From an uncultured Eubacteriales bacterium (GTDB lineage: Bacteria > Bacillota > Clostridia > TANB77 > RGIG9151): a stretch of 35,165 nucleotides of DNA. Where the stretch lies: the NCBI GenBank assembly GCA_964640345.1, contig CAZXFU010000003.1, positions 1 through 35,165 on the forward strand, given 5' to 3'. The notes under the pieces are model-generated. The model worked only from the letters and a program-made list of their open reading frames with translations, made no database searches and was not told where the DNA came from. This document shows, in pieces, positions 14,329 to 28,550 of the stretch; position 1 is the first letter of the stretch; each line of letters begins with the position of its first letter. A program made the position numbers and the translations under genes.

Positions 14329-14346
14329 ATTCGAGGAGGGAGTTTG

Positions 14347-14922
14347 ATGAATTTTTTAGAGGAAATAGAATTTAATATTATGCAGCCGATAGGCATTAAT
14401 GTTGTGGCTTTTCTGATAAAGATGACCAAAGCAAACCAATGGGAAAATTTACCGCTTTGCACTTTGGAAAAACTTGAATATACAGAGACTGCTGTAAACG
14501 GTAGGATTCAACGAACTTTTTCGATTCCTTACGGAGACGATACGAGCACAGGCAACATACTTATTGCTTCTTTGGGGAAGAACAGATGTGTTATTGGGCA
14601 TGGTCATATAATAAATAAAGAGTTTGTTTCGGAAGAAGAAACTATCCAACTTGAGTATATGAATTATAATGAGTCTGACGTTGAATCAAGAAATTATACT
14701 TTTTCGTATAACCCTAAAAGACAGATTGTTTTGTTAGATATTGAGACCGGATGCCAGATGCTACCGACTATTTCCAAACCGGATATGTTTGGGAATTTAA
14801 AGGGTGTTTATAAGTTGGTTCCATATAGAAGATATATTGCATTAGAGATGAATGTTATGGTTACTTTACCGAGAGATGCGGTTGTCGAAAATATTGAAGA
14901 TTTAGCGGATGTAATATTATAG
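14347..14922 (+). CDS. Hypothetical protein (191 aa), no recognisable motif
   Basis: Long ORF with RBS GAGGAGGG 6 nt upstream. It starts 16 nt after the recN stop and abuts the next ORF. Confidence 0.6.
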   Translation: MNFLEEIEFNIMQPIGINVVAFLIKMTKANQWENLPLCTLEKLEYTETAVNGRIQRTFSIPYGDDTSTGNILIASLGKNRCVIGHGHIINKEFVSEEETIQLEYMNYNESDVESRNYTFSYNPKRQIVLLDIETGCQMLPTISKPDMFGNLKGVYKLVPYRRYIALEMNVMVTLPRDAVVENIEDLADVIL

Positions 14923-14937
14923 ATGAGGAGGTTTTTT

Positions 14938-15573
14938 ATGGAGTGTAATGTAAGTATAAGATTTTGCGGACAGGTTATTGTACCGAATGAAAATGGGGAA
15001 TTAGAGTTTGAGGCAGGTTCAGGAACAAAGACAAAAATTCCTGCGGAAGAAGTGCATAAGAGACTATCGCAAGCTCAATCTTTTGATGAAGCGATTGAAT
15101 ATTTAAAGAACAGTGGGGCGTATGTTGGAAAAGAAGATTCGAGAGTTATGGTTGTTATGACTCCAAACGGTAGCCAGATTTTTTCTAATGATGCTCCGAG
15201 TCAAAAGATTGTTGTAGATAAAGACATTCCTGAGAATGTTATAAGTGAAATATTGAGTGTTGACGGATTAGACAGTATTGGGACCGTAGAGAGAATTTTA
15301 ATTTCCAATAATATAATTGAAGATCCGGAAAAAGAGGCTGAAAGAATAAAAACTATTAATGGTGGAGAGTTTAGTTTTGAAAAAGAGGCAGATAACGTTG
15401 ATTCAAGGAGTATGTTAGATGGAGGAGAAATTGCTAGTACAAGACTCAATAGAGACATGTTGGAAGATCCTAAAAATGGCATAATTAGTGAGGAAGAAAA
15501 ACGCAAATTTGATGAAGAGAGATTAAGAAAGAAGAGAGAAGAACATACTAAGGATGACGGTTTAGATAGATAA
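14938..15573 (+). CDS. Hypothetical acidic protein (211 aa) with a Lys/Glu-rich C-terminal tail
   Basis: ORF with GAGGAGG 6 nt before the ATG at 14938; the track start at 14923 would place that RBS inside the ORF. The C-terminus is EEEKRKFDEERLRKKREEH. No family recognised. Confidence 0.6.
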   Translation: MECNVSIRFCGQVIVPNENGELEFEAGSGTKTKIPAEEVHKRLSQAQSFDEAIEYLKNSGAYVGKEDSRVMVVMTPNGSQIFSNDAPSQKIVVDKDIPENVISEILSVDGLDSIGTVERILISNNIIEDPEKEAERIKTINGGEFSFEKEADNVDSRSMLDGGEIASTRLNRDMLEDPKNGIISEEEKRKFDEERLRKKREEHTKDDGLDR

Positions 15574-15596: not shown

Positions 15597-17459
15597 ATGA
15601 TAAAGGGTATTTTGAAAAATAGAAAGAAAAGATTTTGCTTTTACGGAATTGTTACTTTTGCGAGTTCGTTGCTTTTTTCATGGTTAATTACTATATTGGT
15701 TACACAATTTAAATATATGCTTGATAGTTCTATTAATTTTAATGTTTTTAGTCTTGATGCACTGCGTCGGGATGAATTTTTTATGTTGTTTCCGAAGAAT
15801 TTTTTGTTTTTTTTGGCGGTGGGATTTATTATTGCAATTTGCTATGAAGTAAAAAATTATGTTATAAAAGGTGAATATGAAGGAATAGAGCATGGTTCGA
15901 GTGGATGGGCTGACGGCGAACAATATGAGATATTAAACAGAAAAGATGGTATCATTTTGGCCCGGGACAATTATCTGACGACAGATAATAAGTTTATAAA
16001 TAAAAATGTTTTAATTATTGGTGGTGCCGGTTCTAGGAAATCAAGAGGTTATATAATGCCCAATATGATGCAGATGCTGGGCTCGTATGTTGTAACTGAC
16101 CCAAAGGGTGAGAATTTTGATACTGCGGCCGGTTTTTTGCAGAAAAACGGTTATGAGGTAAGATGTATAAATCTTGTTAATCCGAGTTGTAGCGACTCTT
16201 ATAATCCTTTATGGCATATTGGCAGTACGCTTGATGTTGATATTATTAGTGACGCTTTAATAAAAGGGACAAGTAAGGGTTCCACTAATGAAGACCCTTT
16301 CTGGCCACAGGCAGAAAGAGCGTTGCTTAACTCATGTATTTATTATTTGCTTAGTGAATGTCCTAAGGAAGAGCAGTCGTTTGCGAGTTGCCTTGCGATG
16401 GTAAGAGCGGGAGAAAATTTTGACTGGATGGACGATGTTTTTATGCGTCTTCCTTTTGAGCATATGGCAAGAAAGAGTTACGAGACATTTAGGCTTGCTG
16501 TTGATAAGACAAGAGCGGGAGTTTTAGTAGGACTTGCAACTCGTCTTAATGTTTTTGATACGCCTGAAATTTCTTCGATTACAGGTACAAGTTCTATAGA
16601 TATCGATGCGATGGGTTCTAAAAAAATGGCAACATTTGTAATTACCCCAGATAGCCATAGTGCATTTAACTTTATTTCTACGATTTTCTTTGGACAGGTT
16701 TTGCAAAGACTTTATTACAAGGCAGATGAAAACTCTGCAATTCGTGCTGATGGTAAATGTACGTTAGATGTTCCGGTATTTTTCCTTATGGATGAATTTG
16801 CTAATGTTGGTCAAATCCCGGATTTTAACCAAAAACTTAGCACGAGTAGAAGCAGAAATATCAATATTAGTATTGTCTTACAGAGTATAGACCAATTGCA
16901 GGATTTGTATAAGGATATTTATGAAAATATTATGGCCAACTGCGATACACATTTATTTTTAGGAAGCCAGGCTACTAAAACTTGTGAATATATTTCTAAA
17001 AGTTTGGGAGAAACTACTATTAATAAGAAACAGGTTTCTTTAAGCGGGAAAATGAACGGAATTGTTTTAGCATCTTCACCTGATTCGCAAAGTGTATCTG
17101 ACCAATCGATGGGACGTTCGCTTGTGACCATTGATGAGCTTAAGAGATTACCGCTTGATACAAGTATTGTTATGGTTAAAGGTTTAAGACCTATTAAGGC
17201 AAAAAAATATGATATTAGTATGCACCCATTGGCAAAGGAAATTGATAAGTTTAAGATTAGCCATAATAATCCGACTCTAAATCACAGAGGAGAGTACAGG
17301 ATTGTTTATCCTTATGGGTTAAAAACGGGAGCAGTTAACAATAGTGTACGGTCTAATGCTAACGAAGAAGAGCCTGAAATCGAGAATAATCTTGATGATG
17401 TGGATATCCAAAAGCAACTTGAAACTAAGTTTGATGAATTGTTTGGGAGTTTAACATAA
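15597..17459 (+). CDS. Type IV secretion coupling protein (VirD4/TraG family)
   Basis: Two N-terminal TM helices and a P-loop region NVLIIGGAGSRKSRGYIMPNMMQ...YVVTDPKGE. Walker B with the TraG C-terminal signature is FFLMDEFANVGQIPDFNQKLSTSRSRNINISIVLQSIDQL. Architecture is typical of Bacillota conjugative T4CPs. Confidence 0.88.
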   Translation: MIKGILKNRKKRFCFYGIVTFASSLLFSWLITILVTQFKYMLDSSINFNVFSLDALRRDEFFMLFPKNFLFFLAVGFIIAICYEVKNYVIKGEYEGIEHGSSGWADGEQYEILNRKDGIILARDNYLTTDNKFINKNVLIIGGAGSRKSRGYIMPNMMQMLGSYVVTDPKGENFDTAAGFLQKNGYEVRCINLVNPSCSDSYNPLWHIGSTLDVDIISDALIKGTSKGSTNEDPFWPQAERALLNSCIYYLLSECPKEEQSFASCLAMVRAGENFDWMDDVFMRLPFEHMARKSYETFRLAVDKTRAGVLVGLATRLNVFDTPEISSITGTSSIDIDAMGSKKMATFVITPDSHSAFNFISTIFFGQVLQRLYYKADENSAIRADGKCTLDVPVFFLMDEFANVGQIPDFNQKLSTSRSRNINISIVLQSIDQLQDLYKDIYENIMANCDTHLFLGSQATKTCEYISKSLGETTINKKQVSLSGKMNGIVLASSPDSQSVSDQSMGRSLVTIDELKRLPLDTSIVMVKGLRPIKAKKYDISMHPLAKEIDKFKISHNNPTLNHRGEYRIVYPYGLKTGAVNNSVRSNANEEEPEIENNLDDVDIQKQLETKFDELFGSLT

Positions 17460-17792: not shown

Positions 17793-17815
17793 TGAAACTG
17801 AAAGGAGCGTATTTT

Positions 17816-17887: not shown

Positions 17888-17890
17888 TCT

Positions 17891-18865
17891 ATGTGTAATA
17901 CAGATACTCGTGATGTTAAATCCACTGTTGAGCAGATTAAAAGACTCGAGGACGCCGGGTGCGAGATTATTAGAGTTGCTGTTTTAGATAATGAGGCAGC
18001 AGAGGCTATTTCTAAGATAAAAAAACAAATTTCCATTCCACTTGTTGCAGATATTCATTTCGATTACAGGCTGGCAATTGAATCTATAAAGAACGGTGCA
18101 GACAAAATAAGAATTAATCCCGGTAATATTGGAAGCGTTGATAGGGTTAAGGCTGTTGTAGACACTGCTCGTGAGTACGATGTACCGATTAGAGTCGGTG
18201 TAAATGGTGGTTCGCTTGCCAGAGAAGTCCTTGAAAAATATGGAAAAGTTACAGTTGGAGGATTAGTTGAGAGTGCGTATGATAACGTTTTAATTTTAGA
18301 AGAAATGGACTTTGATAACATAGTTGTTTCTCTTAAAGTTTCTAATGTGTCGGGAACTGTTGAGGCATACAAATTACTTTCAGAGAAATGCAATTATCCT
18401 TTACATATCGGTGTTACCGAAGCAGGCACCTTGATGGGTGGTACAATAAAGAATGCAATGGGGATTGGAATTTTACTAAATGAAGGAATAGGAGATACAT
18501 TAAGAGTTTCTTTAACGGCAGACCCGATTGAAGAAGTAAAAGTAGGCTGGAATATATTAAAAGGACTTGGAATAAGAAGCAATGGAGTACAGTTTATCTC
18601 GTGTCCTACTTGTGGGCGTACAAAAGTTAATATGCTTCCGATTGCTGAAAAAGTTGAGAGAGCTTTAGAAAATATAGATAAGGATATAAAAGTCGCAGTT
18701 ATGGGTTGTGCAGTGAATGGACCGGGAGAAGCTTCAGAGGCAGATTTCGGTGTCGCTTGTGGGGATGGAACCGGATTATTGTTTAAAAAAGGGGAAATAA
18801 TAAAAAAAGTCAATGAAAATGAAATTGTTACTGAATTAATCAGTTTAATTGAGGAGGGAAAATAA
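17891..18865 (+). CDS. ispG: 4-hydroxy-3-methylbut-2-enyl diphosphate synthase (IspG/GcpE), main ORF downstream of the internal stop
   Basis: SMCNTDTRDV..TVEQIKRLEDAGCEIIRVAV, PLVADIHFDYRLA, IRINPGNIG, and the C-terminal Fe-S cluster motif CPTCGR...GCAVNGPGE. Confidence 0.92.
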   Translation: MCNTDTRDVKSTVEQIKRLEDAGCEIIRVAVLDNEAAEAISKIKKQISIPLVADIHFDYRLAIESIKNGADKIRINPGNIGSVDRVKAVVDTAREYDVPIRVGVNGGSLAREVLEKYGKVTVGGLVESAYDNVLILEEMDFDNIVVSLKVSNVSGTVEAYKLLSEKCNYPLHIGVTEAGTLMGGTIKNAMGIGILLNEGIGDTLRVSLTADPIEEVKVGWNILKGLGIRSNGVQFISCPTCGRTKVNMLPIAEKVERALENIDKDIKVAVMGCAVNGPGEASEADFGVACGDGTGLLFKKGEIIKKVNENEIVTELISLIEEGK

Positions 18866-19332
18866 TGAACGCCGTTTATGCAGGATCTTTCGATCCTTTT
18901 ACAATTGGTCATCTGCATGTATTAAGGCAGGCTTGCCAGATTTTTGATAAGGTTTATGTCGCCATAGCTGTTAATAGCGAGAAAAGCAGAAGAATTGATA
19001 AAGATGTAATGAAAGAGGCTATTGACAGGGTTATAAAAAACAATGGTATAAACAATGCGGAAGCTTTAGTATTTAATGGACTTACAGTAGATTTAGCTGT
19101 TGAAAAAGGGGCTAGATTTTTGGTGAGAGGTCTTAGAAATGGTACGGATTATGAATATGAGGAAAATTTAGCAGTAGTTAATAATAAAATTTCCGGGGTC
19201 GAGACTATATATTTTAGAGCCGGAAAAACTGCACATATTAGTTCATCAGTGGTTATGGAACTTTATAATTATGGAAAAGACATCACAAAGTGGGTGCCGG
19301 AAGAAATTATTTCCGTTTTGCCTAAGAAATAA
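18865..19332 (+). CDS. coaD: Phosphopantetheine adenylyltransferase
   Basis: AVYAGSFDPFTIGHLHVLRQA (the T/HxGH nucleotidyltransferase motif), LVRGLRNGTDYEYE and ISSSVV match CoaD. The ATG overlaps the ispG stop (TAATG). Confidence 0.88.
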   Translation: MNAVYAGSFDPFTIGHLHVLRQACQIFDKVYVAIAVNSEKSRRIDKDVMKEAIDRVIKNNGINNAEALVFNGLTVDLAVEKGARFLVRGLRNGTDYEYEENLAVVNNKISGVETIYFRAGKTAHISSSVVMELYNYGKDITKWVPEEIISVLPKK

Positions 19333-19377
19333 AATTGACAGATAAAAACTTTTTATCTGTCAATTTTATTTCTTAGG
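19321..19377. terminator. 57-bp perfect palindrome acting as a bidirectional terminator
   Basis: CCTAAGAAATAAAATTGACAGATAAAAA (19321-19348) pairs with TTTTTATCTGTCAATTTTATTTCTTAGG (19350-19377). It spans the stop codons of convergent coaD and the DUF1858-like gene. Confidence 0.8.
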
Positions 19378-19564
19378 CATTTATTTGACTAAGTATCTCG
19401 TTTACATCTACGCCATGAACGTTACAAGCTTCTTCTAATGTTTCCATTTGTGAAGAAGGGCAACCAAGACAGTGCATTCCCATTCCTAAAAGAATTGGAG
19501 CGACTTCTTCTCCGCGAAGTTCTAATATTTCGCCTATAGTCATATCAGGTGTTATTTTTTCCAT
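19373..19564 (-). CDS. DUF1858-type small redox/disulfide protein (hybrid-cluster-protein-associated family)
   Basis: 63 aa. TIGEILE....APILLGMGMHCLGCPSSQMETLEEAC..HGVDVNEIL matches the DUF1858 pattern with its conserved CxxC. Confidence 0.65.
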   Translation of the reverse strand: MEKITPDMTIGEILELRGEEVAPILLGMGMHCLGCPSSQMETLEEACNVHGVDVNEILSQINA

Positions 19565-19674
19565 TTTTATCTTCCTTTCTCCTTATATTTTCAGTTTCCT
19601 GTTACTTAGTATACAGTATTTTTCATAAAATATAAAGATTTTTGGAAAAAAATATAAATTTATTAAAAAATATA

Positions 19675-19703
19675 TGGACAATTTCAAAATATTGGTATAT
19701 TAT
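19675..19703 (+). promoter_or_regulatory. Candidate promoter for the pilin-like operon (TGGACA-17 nt-TATTAT)
   Basis: TGGACA at 19675-19680 and TATTAT at 19698-19703, about 50 nt upstream of the TTG start at 19756. AT-rich background. Confidence 0.25.
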
Positions 19704-19755
19704 TTCCATATAAATACATTAATGTAAAAATGTTGAATGGAAAGGAGGGAGAATT

Positions 19756-20079
19756 TTGAAAAAGAAGTTTGCTGTTTTAGTACCGGTGTTTTGTGTTTTG
19801 ATTACGACGGTTTCTTTTGCAGCAGCAAGTTATCCTACTATTATGAATAATTTGAACAGTGCACTTACCAAAATACAGTCTTGGTTGGTAACTATTGCTA
19901 CTCCGGCAGCCGCAATTGGGGTTATAAGCGGTGTCCTTATTAAAAAGTTTAGCTTTGGAGATACCGAAAGAATGTTGGTAGGAAGAAGACTTATAAGGTC
20001 TTGCTTTGTTTCGTACGGTATGGTTATGGGAATCGATTTACTATTAAAGGCAATTAAAACATTTGTCACAAAATCGTAA
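19756..20079 (+). CDS. VirB2/TrbC-like pilin-type membrane protein (107 aa)
   Basis: Sec signal peptide MKKKFAVLVPVFCVLITTVSFAAA|S, a hydrophilic stretch, TM1 (LVTIATPAAAIGVISGVLI), a charged loop (KKFSFGDTERMLVGRR) and TM2 (SCFVSYGMVMGIDLLL). This is the canonical T4SS pilin layout. The call is by topology, not by sequence identity. Confidence 0.5.
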   Translation: MKKKFAVLVPVFCVLITTVSFAAASYPTIMNNLNSALTKIQSWLVTIATPAAAIGVISGVLIKKFSFGDTERMLVGRRLIRSCFVSYGMVMGIDLLLKAIKTFVTKS

Positions 20080-20094
20080 AGTGCGGGTGAAAAC

Positions 20095-20141
20095 AAGACA
20101 TAAGGTTTAACAGAATAATGCGTAACCTTATGTCTTATTTT
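20095..20141 (+). terminator. Hairpin after the pilin-like gene (partial terminator or attenuator)
   Basis: 13-bp perfect stem AAGACATAAGGTT / AACCTTATGTCTT with a 16-nt loop, followed by ATTTT. Confidence 0.55.
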
Positions 20142-20169
20142 CCAGTGCAAAAAGATTGGAGGTATATAG

Positions 20170-21009
20170 TTGAATAAGATAGTTGCTATAGTAGAGGCGT
20201 TAGACTGCTTAAAGGGACTTTGGAATTCCACTTCGGAACTTTTAGCGGAGGTCATGCCTAATAATTTTTACGAACTTATGGACAAGTTTGCTTTTTTGAA
20301 TGCGAATTTTTTATATATTGAAAGCTCAGGGAAATTTTTAGATAAAACTCAAAATATAGCAAATGCGATTATGAATTTATCTAACTTTGTAATATGGGGG
20401 ATTTTGTTATTTTTCGGTTTTAAGAGTTTGTTTTCTTACTTTATTTCCCAAAAAGTTGATGTCCCTTGGAAGATGTTTATCAGGATTATTATATTTGGAG
20501 TTTTAGCAAATTCGGCATTTTTTATTTGCTATTCCGGAGTGTTTTTTGCAGAAAATTGCACGAATTATATTAGAGGCTATGTGGGTGAAAGTAATACATC
20601 ATTTGCTTTTTTGGAAGAATGTGTAGACAAAAATGACTTTGATACTGAAAAAGATGAAGAATCCCAACTCAATATTTATACTGTTGATGCACTTATATCC
20701 TTATTTATTTTTTTCTCTTCTTTTTTACTATCTGTTTTTCTTTGTGGAAGATACATTTTACTAAGAGTTTTGATACTTTTATCGCCCGTGTCTTTTTTAG
20801 TCTGTGGGATAAAGGATGGAGAGAGAATATTTATTAGATGGTGCAAAGGCTTTTGTTCACTACTTTTTATGCAAGCGTTTTTTGCTGTGTCGTTAGGTAT
20901 AGTAAATTTTACGAATATCAAAGATGATACAATGTTTGGAATTTTGGTTTGTGCTCTATTGCTGCTTTTTAATAAATTTGTTTTTAGATTTTTAAAATTA
21001 TCATTATAA
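20170..21009 (+). CDS. Polytopic membrane protein, VirB6/TrbL-like
   Basis: 279 aa with about 6 predicted TM helices and a roughly 60-aa soluble N-terminus. The central segment GRYILLRVLILLSPVSFL resembles the TrbL/VirB6 core helix. It directly follows the pilin-like gene, as in Bacillota T4SS loci. TTG start after GGAGG. Confidence 0.45.
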   Translation: MNKIVAIVEALDCLKGLWNSTSELLAEVMPNNFYELMDKFAFLNANFLYIESSGKFLDKTQNIANAIMNLSNFVIWGILLFFGFKSLFSYFISQKVDVPWKMFIRIIIFGVLANSAFFICYSGVFFAENCTNYIRGYVGESNTSFAFLEECVDKNDFDTEKDEESQLNIYTVDALISLFIFFSSFLLSVFLCGRYILLRVLILLSPVSFLVCGIKDGERIFIRWCKGFCSLLFMQAFFAVSLGIVNFTNIKDDTMFGILVCALLLLFNKFVFRFLKLSL

Positions 21010-21069
21010 AGTATTAATAAACCTTTTTGCAAAACCGATAAATAAGGAGAGAAAGGTAGGTAGATTATT

Positions 21070-21873
21070 GTGAAGATTTCAAGGATTAGGCATGTGGTAT
21101 GTACGTCAATATTTTTCTTAATTGTTATTGCTATTATAACTGCGTTGTTTACGGCTGAGATAGACGCATTAAGAAAAAACACTGAGGAAATGGTTTATAG
21201 AGTTGTTGCGACTCAGGATATAGAACCTGGTAAGTCCATAACTTCTGATAATGTTCAGCTTGTTCAGATACAAAATGTTTTAGATGTTGATGGAGCAGTT
21301 TACAGAATGAATAAAGATGATGATAATGTTTCTTCTGTAGAAGCATATCAGAATGGTACTAAAAGAGAGAAAAATGATGAGCTTTGGGCAGTTGGGAAAG
21401 TGGCTAAGGACAAGATTTATAAAGGTGAAATCCTACTTGCCGAAAAGCTTGTTTTAAATGAAAATGTAGTTGGAGATGAAACGAGGCTTTACGCTATCCC
21501 ATTTGATTCATCTACTACAGGCGGATATAATATAAGTTTAGGCGAAAAAGTTGATATTTGTGTATTATACACAGAAAACGCTAAGACGATTGCGGAATAT
21601 CAGAATTTACCGGACAATAAGGCTATTGATATTGTGCTTGCCGGAAAGCAGATTGCAGATATAAGAGACGAATCAGGAAATAGCAGAAAATCTCAAGAAG
21701 GAGCTGCTGTAGTGCCGGGTTATGTTTGCTTTAATTTGTCATATGAAGAAATAAACAAAATCGAAATTGCAAAACGCCAAGGTTCGTTGTTTATTGGTAA
21801 TGCAGAAAATTATTATAAAGAGGGAAGCCAGGCGGAGACATTTATGACAGATGTTGCTATGCCTAACTTCTAA
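21070..21873 (+). CDS. cpaB: Flp pilus assembly protein CpaB/RcpC-like (SAF domain)
   Basis: N-terminal TM anchor, a SAF-like segment (YRVVATQDIEPGKSITSDNVQLVQI) and a C-terminal RcpC-like segment (RLYAIPFDSSTTGGYNISLGEKVDICVLY). GTG start. Confidence 0.7.
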   Translation: MKISRIRHVVCTSIFFLIVIAIITALFTAEIDALRKNTEEMVYRVVATQDIEPGKSITSDNVQLVQIQNVLDVDGAVYRMNKDDDNVSSVEAYQNGTKREKNDELWAVGKVAKDKIYKGEILLAEKLVLNENVVGDETRLYAIPFDSSTTGGYNISLGEKVDICVLYTENAKTIAEYQNLPDNKAIDIVLAGKQIADIRDESGNSRKSQEGAAVVPGYVCFNLSYEEINKIEIAKRQGSLFIGNAENYYKEGSQAETFMTDVAMPNF

Positions 21874-21893
21874 TTTGGAAAGGGAGAGTAAGA

Positions 21894-22748
21894 ATGGGTG
21901 AAAATAGAAACTCAAAAGTAATTTCAGTAGGAAGTATAAAACATGGCCAGGGTATTACATGTTTTACGTTTAATCTTGCATACAAGCTCTCTACTTTGCT
22001 CGATAAAAAGATATTAATTATTGATACAAATTTTATGTTTAAAGAAATCGCATATATTGCCGAACAGACTAATCCAAATGGAATAGATGATTTGATTTCT
22101 ATGGTAAAAACACAGGAATTATCTCAAGAAATTTTTATGTTATATACAGAAGAAGTAAATAAGCATTTACGTGTTATAAATTCGACGCAGATTGATACAT
22201 TGGACTATATAAGGAAAAACGATAAGTATATTATAAAAATTATAGAAGAGGCAAAGAAATATTTTGATATTATTATTATCGATGCGGGAGCGGGAGTAAA
22301 CAAGAATTCATTAATAAAGCAGATTTATGAGGTTAGTGATGTATTTGTAAATATGCTTACTCAAAATGCCTATATAATTGATTGGTACGTTAATCATAAC
22401 GAATTTAAAGATGAGAAAGTTATTAATGTTATAAATATGTATGAAGAAGACATTTATCCGGATTATGGCGATATTACTAAAGAATTTAAGTTATCTGACC
22501 TTAGTTTGATAAGATATTCTAAATTGTTTAAGAACTTTTATAACCAAAAAATATTAGATCCTTTTTACAAAACAGAAGACCTGTTTAATAACGATTTTTC
22601 GCAGCTTATTATTAAAGTGGCTGAAAAATTAAATATAAAGGAACTAAAAAAACTTGATATTGTTAATACAAATATGTTAATTGATAGCAAATATAATGAA
22701 AAAGCCAAAAAAGGTTTTTTTGCAAGATTGTTTTCTTCAAAAAAGTAA
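21894..22748 (+). CDS. TadZ/CpaE-like ParA/MinD-fold protein with a degenerate P-loop
   Basis: KVISVGSIKHGQGITCFTFNLAYKLS...KILIIDTNF aligns with the ParA/MinD pattern (kvI.v.s.KGGvGKTt.a.nLA...kVllvD.d), but both lysines are lost. Its position between cpaB and cpaF is typical of TadZ. Confidence 0.65.
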   Translation: MGENRNSKVISVGSIKHGQGITCFTFNLAYKLSTLLDKKILIIDTNFMFKEIAYIAEQTNPNGIDDLISMVKTQELSQEIFMLYTEEVNKHLRVINSTQIDTLDYIRKNDKYIIKIIEEAKKYFDIIIIDAGAGVNKNSLIKQIYEVSDVFVNMLTQNAYIIDWYVNHNEFKDEKVINVINMYEEDIYPDYGDITKEFKLSDLSLIRYSKLFKNFYNQKILDPFYKTEDLFNNDFSQLIIKVAEKLNIKELKKLDIVNTNMLIDSKYNEKAKKGFFARLFSSKK

Positions 22749-22760
22749 GGAAGTGAGAAG

Positions 22761-24311
22761 ATGACACAGGTACTTCTAAATGATGTCATAAACGACATAA
22801 AGAATATAATGGAGAACTATAAAGATGATAAAGAATTAAAAATGCTCCACCAAAAGAAAATTGACCAGGCGGCTGCCGGGAGTCCGGAGGCGAAAGGGTA
22901 TGTAAAAGAAGAAATATTAAAAATTTGTTTAAAAGAATTTAAGTTAAAAATAACAGAGGATAATATCGACGACTTGATTTCACAATATCATATAAATTAT
23001 TTTGAGAATATTTATGGTGATGATGAAAACGATCCTTTTTATAAACTATTTGAGCATATGATGTTAAATCATGATGATGATTATGAAACCAAGCTAGACA
23101 GACTTGTCCAAATTATTTACCAGGAGTTATACGGACTCGGCGTAATTGATGAATTATGCGAAGGGCATATCGACGAAACAGGAGTAAATGGTAAAGATTA
23201 TATTTGGGTTCAGGTTGGCGGATTAAAAAGACAGGTTAAGAAGCTTCGCTTCGAAAATAATGCGGTTTTACAGAAAAAAGTTTCTACTGCAATTAGTTTT
23301 GATAGTAAAAATGATATAACAGCGAGTGAGCCGATTGTCTATTGCCAAAGAATGAACGGAAGCCGTGTTACGGCGGTTATTCCTCCTGTTGCCAAGTATC
23401 CGATACTTAATATTCGTCACTTCCATTTGGCAAATGTTACTAAATATGATTTAGTAGACAAAGCAACTTTAACTGCACTTGCAGTAAAATTTATTGAGCT
23501 TGTATTTGCAGGGCGTCCAAACTTCCTAATTATAGGTCAACAGGGTAGTGGTAAATCTACGCTTTTAAGAGTTTTATTAAATGAAGTATCTGATGCAATC
23601 GGTATTGGAACGATTGAAAATATGTTTGAGTTGAACTTAGATGATTATTATCCTAGTAAAAACGTTATTGCTTTGCAGTCTACCGAAAAATTCCCGGCAG
23701 ACAAGTTGTTTGAGTTAATGTTAAGACAAAATAGAGATATTATTCTACTTGGAGAAATAAGGTCTTCTAACGAAGCTGTAGAAACGATAAACGCAATGTT
23801 ACGTCAATGCCGTGGCTCTGCTGCTACTTTTCATAGTTCTTCGCCTACTCGTGCGATACATGACTTGAGAAACCTTTGTATGAGAAGTAGTCAGTATAAA
23901 GACTTCTTAACAGCTCAATTTGACGTTGCGGATGCTATTGACTTGATTTTGGAGGGACGGCTTGATTATAAAACCGGTAAAAGATATATAAATCGTATTT
24001 CTGTTGTTGAAGCAGATGATACAGACTATAAATTTGCAGTTAATGATATTTTTAGGTATGACCATGATAAGAAGGAATTGTTGCCGGTTCAATGTGTCTC
24101 AGACGAATTCCTTGAAAAGCTGCTTGATTATGGTATGCCAATAGAGAATATAAAGAAAATAAAAGATTTATTTAAAGAAAATGTAAAAACAGATGAATTA
24201 AATTCTGAAGAAAAAAATGAAGTTGAAAAGCCGGAAACTAAAGGAAAGAAAAACAGTAAAAATAAGGCAGAAGATGTAGAAGTAAAAACTAAAAAACAGG
24301 CAAAAAAATGA
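22761..24311 (+). CDS. CpaF/TadA-type secretion ATPase (VirB11 superfamily) with a Lys-rich C-terminal tail
   Basis: Walker A GQQGSGKST (23535-23558), Walker B and Asp box DIILLGEIRSSNEA, and a His-box-like ATFHSSSP. The length of 516 aa is typical of CpaF. The last 45 or so residues are K/E-rich. Confidence 0.85.
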   Translation: MTQVLLNDVINDIKNIMENYKDDKELKMLHQKKIDQAAAGSPEAKGYVKEEILKICLKEFKLKITEDNIDDLISQYHINYFENIYGDDENDPFYKLFEHMMLNHDDDYETKLDRLVQIIYQELYGLGVIDELCEGHIDETGVNGKDYIWVQVGGLKRQVKKLRFENNAVLQKKVSTAISFDSKNDITASEPIVYCQRMNGSRVTAVIPPVAKYPILNIRHFHLANVTKYDLVDKATLTALAVKFIELVFAGRPNFLIIGQQGSGKSTLLRVLLNEVSDAIGIGTIENMFELNLDDYYPSKNVIALQSTEKFPADKLFELMLRQNRDIILLGEIRSSNEAVETINAMLRQCRGSAATFHSSSPTRAIHDLRNLCMRSSQYKDFLTAQFDVADAIDLILEGRLDYKTGKRYINRISVVEADDTDYKFAVNDIFRYDHDKKELLPVQCVSDEFLEKLLDYGMPIENIKKIKDLFKENVKTDELNSEEKNEVEKPETKGKKNSKNKAEDVEVKTKKQAKK

Positions 24312-24340
24312 TTTTTGTTAGGAAATGGAGGATGAAATAG

Positions 24341-25297
24341 ATGTCAGAGATTTCCCTTTTGATAACTGATTGGTTTGTAGAATTCGGATATGGATTGTTA
24401 ATCTTTATTGCCGTTGCTGTGGTTATGCTGATAGGAATTTTAATATATATAACGTATATAGAAAAGAAAAACAGTGCATGGCTTAACCAAAGAAAAAGCA
24501 GTGTAAAAGCTGTATATTCGCTAAAAAATATTCCTATTTTATATGGAATTCAAACAAGGATTGCTAATAAGTTTGCTATTACAAATACAGGTTCAAGGCA
24601 AGAAAATGAGAGATATGCATTATATGTTATGGGATTTATCTTAATTTGTGCAATTGGAATTATTGTGTTGCTGTATCCATTTGTAAATACATATCCATAT
24701 GCTATTATTTTAATAGTAGCAATAGGTTTGGCTATTCCTTGGATGGTGTTTAGTATATTTTATGAAGCTCAACTTGCCAAAATGATAAAGCAGTTGCCAC
24801 AAGCTATTGATGAGTTTGCAAGCAGTTATAGGAAGTCAAATAAGGTTTTTAATGCACTAAGAGATTCTTATCAGTTTATGCCAAGAGTTGTTGGCAAAGA
24901 ATTTGAAAGGCTTTATAAGTCATATAATATTGACTTTGAAGACGGAATTGAGTATTTTAGATCGAGAATAAAAAACGATTGGGCAGGTATTTTTGCGAGT
25001 CTTCTTTTGATAAACTACACAAAGGGCGGAACGATTATTGCTCAATTAGATGATTTAAATACAGAAATTGAAAACGATATTATCGCAAAAGATAGAGTAA
25101 GAAGTAAAATGTTAGGATTTAAATTAGTTGCACTTTCCACGATCCTTTTAGTAGTATTGGCTATTTTTTCAAATATGTTGATGTCTGAATCTGCTAAAGA
25201 ATATTATATGGGTTATTCCGGTCAAAATGAGATTATTATTACGTTAACAATCGCATTCATAACGTTTTTATGTATGATGATTGTTGAAAGATTATAA
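24341..25297 (+). CDS. TadB-like platform protein (T2SS-F domain)
   Basis: TM helices flank a helical cytoplasmic domain (QLPQAIDEFASSYRKSNKVFNALRDSY...GIEYFRSRI...LDDLNTEI) that fits the T2SSF/TadB pattern. It directly follows the ATPase gene. Confidence 0.7.
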   Translation: MSEISLLITDWFVEFGYGLLIFIAVAVVMLIGILIYITYIEKKNSAWLNQRKSSVKAVYSLKNIPILYGIQTRIANKFAITNTGSRQENERYALYVMGFILICAIGIIVLLYPFVNTYPYAIILIVAIGLAIPWMVFSIFYEAQLAKMIKQLPQAIDEFASSYRKSNKVFNALRDSYQFMPRVVGKEFERLYKSYNIDFEDGIEYFRSRIKNDWAGIFASLLLINYTKGGTIIAQLDDLNTEIENDIIAKDRVRSKMLGFKLVALSTILLVVLAIFSNMLMSESAKEYYMGYSGQNEIIITLTIAFITFLCMMIVERL

Positions 25298-25313
25298 AGG
25301 GGTGATAAAGTAC

Positions 25314-26486
25314 ATGGGGGAAATAATTTTAGGTATTGTAATAGGTCTGATAGTGTTATTAGTGTTATTTTTGATAATTTTGTTTGTACATCAGCCCCGG
25401 GCGATAAAGGTAAAAAATGATACATTTTCTTTAGAAGAGCTTACTTACTCACCTGTATTTAAAAAAGTAATTAATGGTCTTATGCCACCGGCAGAAGAGA
25501 GGGAATACAGGCAAAACGAGAGACTTATAAGTGACTCCGGAGTTAATATCTCAATGAGAGTGTTTTACTTATTTAAGGTTGTAACGCCGATTGTTTTGCT
25601 AGTAATATTTTTATCTATATTTTTTATTAACAGATCAATAAGAATAGATGCCATTATAACAGACCAAATAGTTGAAACTGTTGATGTACTTGGAAGCGAT
25701 TCAACAAAGCAGGTTGATACTTCATCTAATCAAGAAAAACGTGAAATGGAAAAGGCAAGAAAAGATACGTATCAAATAGTTGAAAATTTGATTGATACAA
25801 GAATTCTAAAAACAGAAGATGCTTTAACCGCAAAGCAGGTTATTCAGGAAATTATGTTAGAAAACCATCTCACGACAGATGATAATGTAGCAAACGACGT
25901 ACCAGATATGTATGACAAACTAAAGAAAGTTTATGCTGCAAAGGAGATAAGTCCGGTATCAATATTACTTATATTGCTATTCTCATTGTGTGGATATTAT
26001 ATCCCAAATGCATATTTAAGAATATCGAGATTAATAAGATATCAATCTTTTGATAATGAAGTTATAGCACTTGAGATGCTAACTATAATGGTGGGGTCTA
26101 TTGAGAACGTTACGGTAAAAGAGGTCTTAAGAATTTTATCATTAAATAGTAAGGCATTTAAACCAAACTTTGAAAAAGCCTTGCTTGAATATCCGATAGA
26201 CTTTGAGCAAGCACTTATAAATTTAGGCGATAGCAGTAAAAATAAAGATTTTCAGGCTCTTGTTTCTACACTAAGGCAATGTGCTACGTCGGATAAATAT
26301 TCAGCGTTGCAAACGCTTCAAAGAAGAAGGCTTAGTAGGAAAGAATATCGGAAACTAATGGAAGAGAAAAAAATCGAAACAAAGATGTATATTGCATTTG
26401 TGATGTTACTTCCTGTATTGTTCTTCCTTGCAAAGTTGCTGTTATCTCCATGGCAAGATTTGATGAATACAAGCGGTTTGCTGTAA
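25314..26486 (+). CDS. TadC-like platform protein (T2SS-F domain), enlarged
   Basis: N-terminal TM helix, a second TM helix, a roughly 110-aa soluble insert, then a T2SSF-like domain (EVIALEMLTIMVGSIENVTVKEVLRIL...FEQALINLGD...ALQTLQ) and a C-terminal TM helix. The ATG at 25314 follows AAAGGGG; the track TTG at 25281 is an alternative start. Confidence 0.6.
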   Translation: MGEIILGIVIGLIVLLVLFLIILFVHQPRAIKVKNDTFSLEELTYSPVFKKVINGLMPPAEEREYRQNERLISDSGVNISMRVFYLFKVVTPIVLLVIFLSIFFINRSIRIDAIITDQIVETVDVLGSDSTKQVDTSSNQEKREMEKARKDTYQIVENLIDTRILKTEDALTAKQVIQEIMLENHLTTDDNVANDVPDMYDKLKKVYAAKEISPVSILLILLFSLCGYYIPNAYLRISRLIRYQSFDNEVIALEMLTIMVGSIENVTVKEVLRILSLNSKAFKPNFEKALLEYPIDFEQALINLGDSSKNKDFQALVSTLRQCATSDKYSALQTLQRRRLSRKEYRKLMEEKKIETKMYIAFVMLLPVLFFLAKLLLSPWQDLMNTSGLL

Positions 26487-26487
26487 A

Positions 26488-26538
26488 AAAAATATGGACG
26501 AATTTAGACTTTTTCGGTAGCCTAATCTCGTCCATTTT
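26488..26538. terminator. Probable bidirectional terminator between convergent genes
   Basis: ATGGACGA (26494-26501) pairs with TCGTCCAT (26528-26535), with additional imperfect inner pairing. It is flanked by an A8 run upstream and a T7 run downstream. Confidence 0.4.
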
Positions 26539-26539
26539 T

Positions 26540-26764
26540 TTAGTTCTTTAACAAATTATTTATGTAGTATAACATTAACATCGTTTCATCTACTAAGGCT
26601 TGCTCTCCAAGAGGCTTAGAAATGTCTATTGCATTTTCCGGAGAACAATTTGCTTTATTATTAAAAAAATCAACTAATTTTTTTGGCAAAATTCTTCTTT
26701 CATTTTCAGGGAGCAAACTAATAATTGCATTTACTTGATTAATCATTTTTTGAATATTATTCAT
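26540..26764 (-). CDS. Small hypothetical protein (74 aa)
   Basis: I preferred the ATG at 26764 (MNNIQKMINQVNAIISLLPENERRILPKKLVDFF...), which overlaps the upstream gene's stop by 8 nt. The track start at 26851 would overlap it by 95 nt. No family assigned. Confidence 0.5.
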   Translation of the reverse strand: MNNIQKMINQVNAIISLLPENERRILPKKLVDFFNNKANCSPENAIDISKPLGEQALVDETMLMLYYINNLLKN

Positions 26765-28550
26765 GTGCAAGTCCTCCGTTTCTTCTGGATTTAGTTTCTG
26801 CTTTTGAAGGTAATATGCTTCCCGGAACTGATTGTTCGATAATTGCGGCAAGTAAAGCTTTAATTTCGGGAGTAGTATTTTTCAGTGCAATACGTAATCT
26901 TTCCATAGAGTCTTTTTGACTTAAAAAGTCATCTAAATCTTTTGCTGTAAATTGAGGTAAAGAGGTTTGATGATTTTCTGCTAAGTTTTCCAGTTCTTCT
27001 TTTTCTACGGTAGTTGTTTTTCTGACGTTGTTTTTTTTACGGGAAAGTTTTCCTAAAATCTCTAAATTTTCTATTGAATGGATAGCTTTACCGGAAGATA
27101 ATTTGATATCCGGGTAACTTTCCTGTAATTTTGATTTTATTTTACCAGATAGCTTATAAAACAATGGTTTACTGCCTAAGTCATCTTGTATTCGAATTAT
27201 AAAGAAGTCGCCTGTATTTTTTTTCTTACTAGTTTCTCCGCAAGATTTTATTTCAATACGGTCTTTTTTCTTTGAGCTAGATATGATTGAACTTAAAATA
27301 TCATATTGTTGGCTCTCAAATTCTTCAGGAAGTATTTTTTTCATATCAAAAGCAGTTTGTAAAATTTCCATTTCAAATATTTTTGATAGCTCAAATCCAT
27401 TATGAAACGCATTTGAATCTAATAACGGTAATAGTTTTCGAATTACATCGTTATCGGAATTTTTAATATTTTCCCAAATTTCTTCGGAGTTCTTGTGTAT
27501 TGTTTCGGGTAGATTATCAGGTTTAATATTAGTACTAACTATAGCTTCTTCGGGAACGTTTGGAGCTTTTTCTTCATATATCCCTCCTCCAGTGAATTCA
27601 CTATTATATTTAGTGTCTTTATAAAGTTGAGGTCTTTTAAATCGGTCTATTTTATACGAACTTTCATCTCTTATTAAAGTTTCAATCGTTTTGGCATTAT
27701 TTAAGTTCAAGGCATCTTTTATAGCAGAGTCTAGAGTAACGTTTAAACGCAAGTTAAAAAATTTATTTTTTATATCTTTGCGGTTAAAAGATTTTTTATT
27801 GCTAAATTCTGGAACATGGTGCTTTAGGACCTTTTCAGCCATTATATAAAATGACTCCGGTAACTCTGAATGCGGATTTAATAGCTCTTCGTCTTTTGAA
27901 TGCCAACTTAAAAAGTAGCTAAAATCTTTAATATTATCATTATTTAGCGTTTTAAGAACCTCAGGCTTAGTAAAACGTTCCAAACTATTTATATGAAGAA
28001 AAAAACTTACCTTTGCATTTGGACGATCTGTCTCGATTGCAAATGTTCTTTCAGGATATTGTTCTTTTAAGTGTTTTATTAGTCTGTTTTTCATCTCGTA
28101 ACTAGGCTTTGTAAGTACGCTGGTATTAACATTAGCATTGGGGTTTTCACAATAATCACGTAAATGTGACAAGTTGCCCAAAAATTGAATCAATATAGCT
28201 AATTGCAAGTCGTCTTGCTCGGTTTCATCGATTTTTTTGATGTTATCTAGTGAATTAAAGCGTGTATGGTAATCATGTTGATTGCATGTAATTAAAGCCT
28301 GCTGATAAAGAATCGGGTCTTCATTTCTATCATGTACATGTACATAGTTTACCATCCAACTATACCTATCGATGGGATCATCGAAGTCCGGCTGAAGTTT
28401 TTCAATTAGCATTGATGCAAAATTTAGTATTCCGGAAAAATCAGATGTTACATTATCTTCTTTATCGACAAGTGGATGTGAATTTTCTTTCAAAAGGTTA
28501 TTAAGCAACGTTCGCAGTACTGTTTCTACCTCATTAAATATGGGATCCAT
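26757..28550 (-). CDS. Large hypothetical protein (597 aa), no recognised domain
   Basis: Uninterrupted 1.8-kb ORF with AGGAGA RBS. The protein is soluble and Lys/Glu/Asn-rich. It is divergent from dnaE. Confidence 0.65.
   Translation of the reverse strand: MDPIFNEVETVLRTLLNNLLKENSHPLVDKEDNVTSDFSGILNFASMLIEKLQPDFDDPIDRYSWMVNYVHVHDRNEDPILYQQALITCNQHDYHTRFNSLDNIKKIDETEQDDLQLAILIQFLGNLSHLRDYCENPNANVNTSVLTKPSYEMKNRLIKHLKEQYPERTFAIETDRPNAKVSFFLHINSLERFTKPEVLKTLNNDNIKDFSYFLSWHSKDEELLNPHSELPESFYIMAEKVLKHHVPEFSNKKSFNRKDIKNKFFNLRLNVTLDSAIKDALNLNNAKTIETLIRDESSYKIDRFKRPQLYKDTKYNSEFTGGGIYEEKAPNVPEEAIVSTNIKPDNLPETIHKNSEEIWENIKNSDNDVIRKLLPLLDSNAFHNGFELSKIFEMEILQTAFDMKKILPEEFESQQYDILSSIISSSKKKDRIEIKSCGETSKKKNTGDFFIIRIQDDLGSKPLFYKLSGKIKSKLQESYPDIKLSSGKAIHSIENLEILGKLSRKKNNVRKTTTVEKEELENLAENHQTSLPQFTAKDLDDFLSQKDSMERLRIALKNTTPEIKALLAAIIEQSVPGSILPSKAETKSRRNGGLAHE

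Follow-up and report, generated by a model that had tools for sequence, protein, structure and literature searches.

The stretch of DNA analysed here (35,165 nt, hereafter the window) comes from an uncultured Eubacteriales bacterium and carries a seven-gene operon in which a VirB2-like pilin and a VirB6-like membrane protein precede a Tad-type motor. We tentatively read this operon, with a probability of about 45%, as two modules that occur apart in other lineages and became fused in this one; in the fusion, the Tad motor would drive a VirB2-like fibre. The seven open reading frames (g1 to g7; loci of this fused kind are called A-type below) are co-directional and tightly packed on the plus strand of the 35 kb window, with gaps of 90, 60, 20, 12 and 29 nt in order from g1 to g6 and a 17 nt overlap between g6 and g7, as a previous sequence-only reading had described. 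The operon and its neighbours are as follows.

14344..15573, plus strand: two ORFs without family, 192 and 216 aa, directly 5' of the coupling protein
15597..17459, plus strand: orphan VirD4-like type IV coupling protein, CD1115 family (PF02534, TraG-D_C, NF045973)
19373..19564, minus strand: DUF1858 small redox-disulfide-domain protein (PF08984, TIGR03980)
19675..19703, plus strand: candidate sigma-70-like promoter 5' of g1 (consensus match only)
19756..20079, plus strand: g1, VirB2/T4SS_pilin-like protein, 107 aa (PF18895 matches of relatives, topology)
20089..20142, plus strand: stem-loop between g1 and g2 (folding energy against shuffles)
20170..21009, plus strand: g2, VirB6/TrbL-like polytopic membrane protein, 279 aa (PF04610, Foldseek)
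21070..21873, plus strand: g3, CpaB/RcpC-like SAF protein with N-terminal membrane anchor (TIGR03177, RcpC, SAF)
21894..22748, plus strand: g4, TadZ-like ParA/MinD-fold protein (AAA_31, MinD, position)
22761..24311, plus strand: g5, CpaF/TadA-VirB11-clade secretion ATPase (T2SSE, TIGR03819, TrbB, VirB11)
24341..25297, plus strand: g6, TadB/TadC-like T2SSF platform protein (PF00482 in family members)
25281..26486, probable start 25314, plus strand: g7, second polytopic platform-like protein (weak hhalign link, position)

After its Sec signal peptide, the g1 product has a two-helix hairpin and a conserved KKFSFGD-ERM loop; its AF2 model (pLDDT 74) shows a signal helix leading into a helical hairpin. 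The window protein itself is sub-threshold in Pfam (TrbC 1.2e-3, PF18895 2.8e-3), but PF18895 (T4SS_pilin) is matched by 25 of 27 relatives in a close set and 28 of 39 in a diverse set, and one relative, from locus L013, reaches 32 bits (cutoff 26.6). These matches and the topology place g1 in a compact VirB2/T4SS_pilin family and bear out the original view of it as VirB2-like rather than an Flp pilin. The window g2 also falls below the Pfam gathering threshold, while eight of its 15 relatives match PF04610 (TrbL/VirB6; best 5.6e-5), one relative has a precomputed PF19590 match, and a homologue from the B-type loci described below reaches 26.2 bits for TrbL against a cutoff of 25.9. In a Foldseek search with the g2 model (AF2, pLDDT 61), R388 TrwI/VirB6 took the top four places at probabilities of 0.97–0.99 over 260–284 columns, with the match ranked after it below 0.35; TM-scores to VirB6 were 0.36–0.45. 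The relatives' PF04610 matches and the Foldseek result agree with the proposal that g2 is VirB6-like and not a prepilin peptidase.

Upstream of g1, a promoter candidate (TGGACA-17-TATTAT) matches the consensus at 10 of 12 positions, and AGGAGG lies 7 nt 5' of the TTG start codon. The hairpin reported after g1 does exist (−26 kcal/mol, z −5.7; none of 200 shuffled sequences folded equally well), and strong stem-loops of unrelated sequence recur at the same position in the orthologous loci L001, L004, L006 and L010, two of them with T-runs on their 3' side. The stem-loop between g1 and g2 is likely an attenuator or partial terminator; since those two orthologous hairpins resemble full terminators, g1 may be transcribed apart from g2–g7. 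Divergent from the pilin gene, the DUF1858 gene (PF08984 4e-21, TIGR03980 2e-25) adjoins it in all A-type and about 75 of 80 B-type loci, an adjacency that holds where the flanks otherwise all differ.

The assignment of g3–g7 to a Tad-type motor stands for the first four genes and is weaker for the last. g3 matches TIGR03177 (CpaB, 2e-12, 46.9 bits with a cutoff of 71), RcpC (1.8e-5) and SAF (4e-5). g4 matches MinD (6.5e-8) and AAA_31 (1e-5) and is placed between CpaB and CpaF as in Tad loci, with a degenerate Walker A motif (GSIKHGQGIT) read off the sequence. g5, whose Walker A is GQQGSGKST and whose relatives are named CpaF/TadA in their sources, matches T2SSE (8.5e-20), the TadA-type TIGR03819 (3.8e-25), TrbB (1.9e-23) and VirB11 (6e-23). 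Seven of eight members of the g6 family match PF00482 (T2SSF, best 2.2e-5), the window protein just at 0.075. A profile search gave g7 no Pfam family and no T2SSF match; it is tied to T2SSF only weakly, through a profile–profile alignment (hhalign) with the T2SSF region of g6 (E 0.0013, probability 18%), and its position is constant across all A-, F- and Ruminiclostridium-type loci. Its start is probably the ATG at 25314, from which orthologues align.

Hosts of the fusion form a small group of uncultured rumen Clostridia. The seven-gene order is retained in nine related contigs despite g2 identities of 36–54% and saturated synonymous sites, and the adjacency of g2 and g3 (∼60–90 nt) persists through deep divergence. 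The locus is chromosomal, as first suggested, with gene order conserved across species. No plasmid counterpart of g1 or g2 was found. Both modules remain under purifying selection: dN/dS is 0.04–0.10 for g1 (with saturated dS), below 1 for g2, which is intact in nine of nine loci, and 0.01–0.14 for the motor genes. In the ATPase tree the A-type clade is monophyletic (169 of 200 bootstraps), with Flp/A24 loci as its sister group. A relative-rate test found no acceleration on the A-type branch for TadZ, CpaF, g6 and g7 (A/F branch ratios 0.84–0.90), while CpaB is slightly faster (1.23). Operon flanks differ between subclades, which points to frequent rearrangement.

Just 3' of the motor, where every Flp block found is located (L101, L105 and L108), sister loci encode three to five Flp-type pilins together with pseudopilins and an A24 peptidase, and ATPases from Flp/A24-carrying loci are 80–81% identical to g5. 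By regular expression and tblastn, no Flp-like ORF or A24 motif occurs in the 35 kb window or the surroundings of the nine related operons, confirming their reported absence locally, nor did either turn up in the flanking sequence, up to 10 kb, of the A-type loci. Each locus has either VirB2 and VirB6 5' of the motor or Flp, TadE and A24 3' of it, never both together. In one further locus, L020 (73% ATPase identity), just the motor is present, and the contig end truncates its 3' side. As its own pilins and peptidase are gone from the locus, the Tad motor may be re-used for a different fibre.

The pilin and VirB6-like genes are usually found in a chromosomal B-type locus, widespread in hundreds of gut Clostridia genomes, which comprises a type IV coupling protein (T4CP), the pilin, VirB6, a small membrane protein and a divergent DUF1858 gene. 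In all 80 B-type loci inspected, T4CP, pilin and VirB6 occur together, and Tad genes are absent from the surrounding 10 kb. Their T4CP is TraD/TrwB-like, and both it and the small membrane protein are missing from A-type loci. The sequence-only reading was wrong that no T4SS ATPase lies nearby: a CD1115-family VirD4 gene (PF02534 2.8e-65, TraG-D_C 2.1e-33, NF045973 418 bits with a cutoff of 250) sits 2.3 kb 5' of the operon in the window and in L010 and L106 (subclade 1). These three share the order recN, o192, o216, T4CP, ispG, coaD, DUF1858, pilin; the 192- and 216-aa ORFs match nothing in Pfam or NCBIfam, yet are conserved alongside the T4CP in L010 and L106. The VirD4-like protein may belong with the operon. 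In subclade 2, no T4CP was present in the flanks covered, 3.5–10 kb upstream and up to 10 kb downstream, and profile searches of the window gave no VirB4-like match. The earlier reading is partly supported: it stands for the gene identities and the local absence of Flp and A24, and had missed VirD4, the B-type T4CP partner and the motor relatives that keep Flp and A24.

In the scenario that we propose, the first module (DUF1858 on the minus strand, the VirB2-like pilin and the VirB6-like channel or platform) derives from a VirB4-less B-type chromosomal locus, and the second is a five-gene Tad-type motor, made up of a CpaB anchor, a TadZ-like organiser, the CpaF ATPase and a pair of platform proteins. 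In the fusion clade, the T4CP next to the pilin module and the pilins and peptidase next to the Tad module have been lost; from this reciprocal loss of partners we infer that the Tad motor powers the VirB2-like fibre. The pilin could be made in excess from its own promoter, with the attenuating stem-loop cutting read-through to g2–g7. It would be inserted by Sec, cleaved by signal peptidase I, extracted from the membrane for polymerisation at the VirB6-like protein, with a CpaF hexamer supplying energy via the TadB/C-like platform. CpaF and platform would thereby replace VirB4 of T4SSs or the single ATPase of the archaeal Ced system, and where a CD1115-type VirD4 is encoded close by, as in the window's subclade, it could contribute delivery of a substrate (DNA). 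Coupling is favoured by conserved order, monophyly, the either-or pattern, the lost T4CP, selection, short gaps with the stem-loop, and the lack of plasmid counterparts of g1/g2 and of a VirB4-like match in the window. Counting against it are the flat motor rates, where a change of substrate class might leave a mark, the terminator-like orthologous hairpins, and VirD4 as an alternative partner for pilin and VirB6 in subclade 1. We know of no T2SSF/CpaF platform that handles a two-TM, Sec-processed VirB2-type pilin, and the literature gave none either; nor did it yield a published precedent for combining VirB2/VirB6 with a Tad motor, in line with the earlier reading, which knew of no description of this combination.

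A strong rival, which we consider quite possible, holds that two independent machines are adjacent as a by-product of local rearrangement. The pilin and VirB6 would use a coupling ATPase elsewhere, in the window's subclade the VirD4 at 15597–17459, as a minimal T4SS or Ced-like DNA-translocation apparatus, while the motor would still assemble A24-processed Flp-type pilins relocated in the genome. The separate occurrence of both modules in other lineages fits this, as do the upstream VirD4 of subclade 1, motor proteins without a rate change after fusion, terminator-like hairpins parting g1 from the remaining genes and the rearranged, subclade-specific flanks. However, it needs two coincident relocations at one tree node, every Flp block found lies directly 3' of a motor and none within up to 10 kb of an A-type locus, subclade 2 has no T4CP over the range covered, and the g2–g3 adjacency has outlasted deep divergence.

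It is unlikely that g1 and g2 are small membrane proteins with another role (e.g. anchor or regulator) beside an ordinary divergent Tad system, resembling VirB2 and VirB6 in no more than their fold and weak profile scores. The sub-threshold scores of both window proteins, a non-discriminating Foldseek result for g1 and the modest confidence and TM-scores of the g2 model would allow this, but profile matches are consistent across the families, with homologues above threshold, the homologues adjoin a TraD/TrwB-like T4CP in 80 of 80 loci, VirB6 chains are the sole high-probability structural matches of g2, and g1 has the VirB2-like Sec signal, two-helix hairpin and charged loop. Least probable, and clearly disfavoured, is that the pair is a decaying remnant left after T4CP loss, a passive passenger 5' of a functional Tad operon; the missing B-type T4CP and small membrane protein are as such a history predicts, but the low dN/dS of g1 at saturated dS, an intact g2 in all nine loci, conserved ribosome-binding and promoter-like elements and the kept position of the stem-loop speak against it.

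Compared with Tad/Flp (type IVc) pili such as Caulobacter Cpa and Aggregatibacter Tad, the order CpaB, TadZ, CpaF/TadA and two T2SSF-type platforms is common to both. The sister loci L101 and L105 additionally encode pilins with a class III leader, pseudopilin-like proteins and an A24 peptidase; the operon here is without Flp pilin, pseudopilin or prepilin peptidase and is headed by Sec-type two-TM VirB2-like and VirB6-like proteins; all its motor components score under curated family cutoffs, and it has no secretin, as the host is a monoderm. With VirB/VirD4 T4SSs (R388 Trw, Agrobacterium VirB) it shares the VirB2-type pilin topology, a VirB6-type protein whose best-matching structure is TrwI, and an ATPase of the VirB11/TadA clade, and here too a VirD4 gene lies close by. 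VirB4, the sole ubiquitous T4SS protein (PMC4027160), was not found in the window, and VirB3, VirB8, VirB1 and relaxase were not recognised there; no mobile element carries the locus, and T4SSs have no counterparts of its T2SSF platform, CpaB and TadZ.

T4SSs of Patescibacteria (CPR) are likewise chromosomal, relaxase-less systems of monoderms with PF18895/TrbC-type pilins adjoining VirB6 (PMC12102498; review PMC12857230). They form VirB2-like pilin arrays and have VirB4, VirB3, VirB8 and TrsD (PMC12102498; PMC12857230), in place of which the operon here has Tad-type components. Since Patescibacteria are called unique among monoderms in their potential for conjugative pili (PMC12857230), the Clostridia family described here falls outside the coverage of that review. 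The archaeal Ced/Ted DNA import systems (PMC9905601) are also chromosomally fixed and relaxase-less, and combine a VirB2-like pilin and a VirB6-like channel with a single ATPase at the membrane. Their proteins have no detectable sequence relationship to those studied here; the ATPase is TraD/VirD4-like (B-type) or CpaF-like (this operon) instead of VirB4/HerA-like, and the host here is bacterial. Even so, the B-type parts list of T4CP, pilin, VirB6 and small TM protein corresponds to CedB, CedA1, CedA and CedA2.

The seven genes of the operon (g1 to g7, positions 19756-26486 of the window, which has about 33% G+C) all lie on the plus strand with successive gaps of 90, 60, 20, 12 and 29 nt, and the last pair overlaps by 17 nt. 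This ORF map and the short gaps bear out the co-directional seven-gene operon proposed in the sequence-only reading. The overlap stems from a mechanically called TTG start of g7 at 25281; its orthologues align from an ATG at 25314 (MGEIILG...), which would leave a 16-nt gap after g6 instead. The hairpin reported behind the pilin-like gene g1 is also present (-26 kcal/mol, z -5.7). A strong stem-loop was found at the same place in all five of the A-type loci examined, which are those where a pilin-VirB6 pair is joined to a Tad motor, with unrelated sequences and a T-run after two of them. Such a structure would fit a major subunit at high expression, and it would equally allow g1 to be transcribed separately. 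No tRNA or Rfam elements were detected in the window. Between g7 and dnaE, the minus strand carries two ORFs (597 and 103 aa; 26540-28550) that overlap in different frames and match no family; they look like a lineage-specific insertion, because dnaE directly follows g7 in the related contigs L005 and L106.

The assignment of g1 as a VirB2-like pilin is supported at the family level. The window protein itself scores 18-19.5 bits with TrbC/VirB2 (1.2e-3) and the T4SS pilin family PF18895 (2.8e-3), under the cutoffs of 26.6 and 27.9. PF18895 is matched by 25 of 27 close relatives and by 28 of 39 diverse ones (best 1e-7), TrbC by 13 of the 39 (best 4.9e-7), and a homologue with 52% identity reaches 32 bits against the PF18895 gathering score of 26.6. 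The alignment and an AF2 model (pLDDT 74) predict a cleavable Sec-type leader and, after it, two long helices with an invariant loop (KKFSFGD-ERM-GRR) between them, a topology compatible with the Sec signal and two transmembrane helices of VirB2-type pilins. Foldseek searches with this helical hairpin are not discriminating; a weak match to the Aeropyrum pernix Ced pilus ranks 12th (probability 0.38). The family is compact: among 1.84 billion representatives, an exhaustive profile search yields 157 matches at E ≤ 1e-3. A divergent Flp pilin was considered for g1 and ruled out by the Sec-type leader, the two helices and the PF18895 matches; the real Flp pilins of this clade carry a KGG|IETI leader.

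The second gene, g2, was described as VirB6/TrbL-like, and both its relatives and its predicted structure point the same way. The window protein has no direct TrbL/VirB6 match; PF04610 is matched by 8 of its 15 relatives, and a distant homologue from a B-type locus (coupling protein, pilin and VirB6-like genes without Tad) reaches 26.2 bits against the PF04610 cutoff of 25.9. The AF2 model is of moderate confidence (pLDDT 61). Its four best PDB matches in Foldseek all come from TrwI/VirB6 chains in the R388 T4SS, with probabilities of 0.97-0.99 over 260-284 columns, E-values of 0.06-0.11 and TM-scores of 0.36-0.45, while all remaining matches fall below a probability of 0.35. A divergent prepilin peptidase is ruled out by the same profiles and structural matches, and nothing in the window resembles the true A24 peptidases of sister loci. 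Sequence and profile searches of the PDB with the g1, g2, g6 and g7 families returned nothing meaningful.

For the five-gene Tad/Cpa core, g3 to g6 have family-level matches. The CpaB-like g3 matches TIGR03177 (2e-12, 46.9 bits, cutoff 71), RcpC (1.8e-5) and SAF. The MinD/ParA-fold protein g4 has a degenerate Walker A as in TadZ, read from the sequence, and its TadZ assignment draws on a generic fold match together with gene position. The secretion ATPase g5 matches T2SSE (8.5e-20, 71 bits against a cutoff of 24.9) as well as the TadA-type, TrbB and VirB11 families of NCBIfam at 1e-23 to 1e-25, under every equivalog cutoff of that database; its relatives are named CpaF/TadA in their sources, and g5 is the predicted CpaF/TadA secretion ATPase expected of a Tad system. 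By itself g6 has a weak T2SSF match, which recurs at sub-threshold scores (best 2.2e-5) in seven of the eight family members. The part of the claim that does not stand as firmly is the second platform protein: g7 matches no family, and profile-profile comparison (hhalign) relates it weakly to the T2SSF region of g6, so that its assignment is mainly positional. The local absence of Flp pilin and A24 peptidase was confirmed. No Flp-like pilin occurs among ORFs of at least 20 aa in 19300-26900, no pilin of the sister-lineage Flp type was found in the window or the A-type loci by regular expression or tblastn, and neither holds a Peptidase_A24 match or a G-G-G-D motif.

Upstream of the operon, the flanks had been described as core housekeeping genes, yet a T4SS-type gene is present:

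15597-17459: VirD4-like type IV coupling protein (T4CP) of the CD1115 family (PF02534, 2.8e-65; NF045973, 418 bits against a cutoff of 250)

This gene is an orphan between recN and ispG, without relaxase, VirB4 or integrase nearby, and is preceded by two conserved ORFs of 192 and 216 aa with no family (14344-15573). It is found only in subclade 1 of the A-type loci, where L010 and L106 keep the order of the window: recN, the two ORFs, T4CP, ispG, coaD, DUF1858 and pilin. The other A-type loci (subclade 2) have topA and dprA upstream instead, and no T4CP within 3.5-10 kb upstream and up to 10 kb downstream of the operon. The CD1115-family protein has no BLAST similarity to the T4CP of B-type loci.

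The remaining statements on the surroundings held. Pfam and NCBIfam scans of the window ORFs gave no relaxase or integrase family and no VirB4, CagE or AAA_10-type match, and the flanks consist of recN, ispG, coaD, dnaE and uvrA. A passing ICE is ruled out by synteny with these housekeeping genes, conserved across species, and neither g1 nor g2 has a match on 72,556 plasmids (tblastn), in agreement with the proposed chromosomally fixed apparatus. Farther out, the window carries part of a flagellar export/switch operon at 410-8478 (fliL, fliM, fliN/Y, fliO, fliP, fliR, flhB), behind it a convergent pair of histidine kinase and OmpR-type response regulator genes, and at 8708-10679 the two genes of a type II restriction-modification system, in which a HaeIII-type endonuclease (PF09556, 1e-137) comes after a C-5 cytosine methylase (PF00145, 7e-107). 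In the subclade 2 contig L004, the gene for a 328-aa protein with a borderline Replication-relaxation match (PF13814, 25.5 bits; cutoff 25.3) lies at 15097-16083, some 3.5 kb beyond the downstream end of the operon, and is preceded by genes for a sigma factor and an S1-domain protein.

The gene order is not peculiar to the window. A neighborhood search found DUF1858 (minus strand), pilin, VirB6, CpaB, TadZ, ATPase, g6 and g7 in the same arrangement in nine related contigs; the A-type set comprises the window, L001, L002, L004/L009, L006/L008, L010 with L005, L103/L104, L106 and L107. A locus search with the g2 alignment recovered only L001. No Flp-type ORF or A24 peptidase was found in the sequence flanking these loci, which spans up to 10 kb, and none of them has the B-type T4CP. 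Both modules are still under purifying selection, as seen from dN/dS values of 0.04-0.10 for g1 and 0.18-0.55 for g2 (dS saturated for both) and 0.01-0.14 for g4 and g5.

By sequence identity, the g5 homologues separate into close orthologues (73-100%) and, after a gap, a second group at about 39%. The closer group bears on the origin of the motor. In two F-type loci, L101 (the L003 locus on a longer contig; 14124-18241) and L105 (6307-9097), the ATPase is 80-81% identical to g5, and the five motor genes are followed by three to five small pilin genes in tandem, whose products carry a class-III leader (KGG|IETI), and by genes for a TadE-like protein, a larger pseudopilin/adhesin-like protein and Peptidase_A24. 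Neither has VirB2 or VirB6 upstream of the motor. The leader is unusual and is shared by the TadE-like protein; the larger protein (319-667 aa) has Flg_new repeats in L101, and the A24 peptidase is short with a LIGGGDI motif. The more distant group includes Ruminiclostridium, with CpaB, TadZ, ATPase and two membrane proteins, then two or three tiny hydrophobic proteins and two ORFs. In Ruminiclostridium and relatives (L015-L018, e.g. L016 5402-15196) this Tad-like cluster lies behind a Ser/Thr kinase gene and adjoins the flagellar genes fliD, fliS and flgN; the 50-55 aa "pilins", as called, begin directly at the hydrophobic segment. Another contig, L007, had entered through the Walker region of the ATPase and was set aside as an ordinary, unrelated Ruminococcus type IVa cluster (PilB/PilT/PilC/PilD).

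The pilin-VirB6 pair has a much wider distribution. Since the 39-sequence pilin alignment was too diverse as a locus-search query, we used a narrower one in a pattern search of species-representative genomes with tblastn confirmation, and found at least 531 stretches matching the pilin family. The best 80 of these are all from uncultured gut or rumen Clostridia (L021-L100, e.g. L025 7736-13709; lineages CAG:273, CAG:245, CAG:780, CAG:354, UBA and others). All 80 share the order DUF1858 (minus strand), a TraD/TrwB-like T4CP with N-terminal transmembrane segments, pilin, VirB6-like, and DnaD-like and DnaI-like genes, and none has Tad genes within 10 kb. A membrane protein of about 93 aa often follows the VirB6-like gene. 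One example read as a whole, L013 (7481-13777), has no VirB4, no relaxase and no unaccounted large ORF. Its VirB6-like gene is split into two ORFs of 176 and 115-131 aa (10303-11209), as in L011 (2239-3145), which may reflect a frameshift, a real division of the gene or an artefact of assembly; in L012 it is a single 290-aa ORF. Near the L013 locus, 13942-19549 on the minus strand holds dprA, a ComM-like Mg-chelatase gene split over two ORFs, and genes for two large proteins whose N-termini resemble those of type IV pilins, with an N_methyl match in one of them. The A-type operon of L004 and L107 likewise has dprA-topA at its flank. The link to competence genes may be coincidental. The DUF1858 gene ("hybrid-cluster-protein-associated redox disulfide"; 19373-19564, minus strand, in the window) is the divergent neighbor of the pilin gene in essentially every A- and B-type locus, and because the pairing is kept where all other flanks differ, it hints at a functional or regulatory tie rather than plain synteny.

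We found no published account of the B-type locus, which is apparently undescribed in its own right. It is conserved, chromosomal and present in hundreds of gut Clostridia genomes, and neither relaxase nor VirB4 was seen at the loci inspected. A review of December 2025 considers Patescibacteria unique among monoderms in their potential for conjugative pili (PMC12857230), and a study of that group states that virB2 homologues are missing from the T4SS classes of Gram-positives (PMC12102498). As reviews limit this potential to Patescibacteria, the B-type locus is a candidate DNA-exchange or contact apparatus of abundant uncultured gut and rumen bacteria.

On a neighbor-joining tree of the ATPase, A-type loci are monophyletic (169 of 200 bootstraps) with the F-type as sister, and L020 falls outside both. 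Given this tree and the lack of Flp, A24 and B-type T4CP at A-type loci, the simplest history would be a single joining of an F-type-like Tad system and a pilin-VirB6 pair, with each module losing its usual partner from the locus at that node. In our best-supported reading, with a probability of roughly 0.45, the VirB2-like pilin at its VirB6-like platform would now depend on the Tad motor in place of a T4SS-family ATPase, considering the partner loss on both sides at one node, the tight linkage kept through deep divergence and the continuing selection on all seven genes. The CpaF ATPase and TadB/C platform, with CpaB and TadZ, would then replace the T4SS ATPase and assemble a Sec-processed VirB2-type pilus, built on a VirB6-type platform without VirB4. 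The same evidence can be read as two independent systems that merely share a locus, with Flp and A24 relocated and the T4CP encoded elsewhere, the main rival, which we rate as somewhat less probable. Such independence would agree with a relative-rate test in which platform and ATPase show no acceleration on the A-type branch (ratios 0.84-0.90; CpaB alone 1.23) and with the VirD4 gene near the pilin genes in one subclade, and we know of no precedent for a switch of a Tad motor to a VirB2-type substrate. Metagenome scans for the relocated genes speak weakly against it: the sister-lineage A24 peptidase retrieved nothing, and the Flp alignment retrieved one 2.3 kb contig, L108, another F-type fragment with Flp again directly behind the platform genes (1871-2310). 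Decay of g1 and g2 is disfavored, being at odds with their dN/dS.

Tad-type and T4SS machines belong to superfamilies thought to be mechanistically distinct, and how conjugative pili are assembled is an open question. If the coupling of Tad motor and VirB2-like pilin is real, VirB2-type pilins would be extracted and polymerized by a rotary Tad-type motor rather than VirB4, which would bear on conjugative-pilus assembly and on the modularity of the two filament-machine families, as a motor swap in nature across two machine superfamilies. The rumen clade offers a natural three-state comparison of motor with Flp/A24, motor with VirB2/VirB6, and VirB2/VirB6 with T4CP. We more tentatively suggest that a type IV filament motor displaced a T4SS-family ATPase in a parent system that would correspond, in bacteria, to the Ced apparatus for DNA exchange in archaea. 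The parent may be the locus in which T4CP, VirB2, VirB6 and a small transmembrane protein occur without VirB4 and which hundreds of uncultured gut Clostridia species have fixed in their core genomes.

Our literature search found no description of a VirB2/VirB6-Tad combination. The operon is built from known kinds of parts, and its candidate hybrid function is a testable hypothesis. It does not qualify as a T4SS by the usual definition, because it has no VirB4 (the sole ubiquitous T4SS protein; PMC4027160) among the window ORFs, no relaxase and no mobile-element context, although the VirD4/TraG coupling protein of such systems is encoded outside the operon at 15597-17459. Nor is it a complete Tad system, since both Flp pilin and A24 peptidase are missing from the locus; the sister loci L101 and L105 do encode the latter, which is absent from the window and the A-type loci. 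The archaeal Ced and Ted systems are defined by a VirB4/HerA-like ATPase (CedB/TedB) together with VirB2-like pilin and VirB6-like channel, and by genetic proof of DNA import; the ATPase of A-type loci is CpaF-type and that of B-type loci TraD-type. The B-type parts list mirrors that of the described archaeal Ced system (PMC9905601), without sequence relationship to it.
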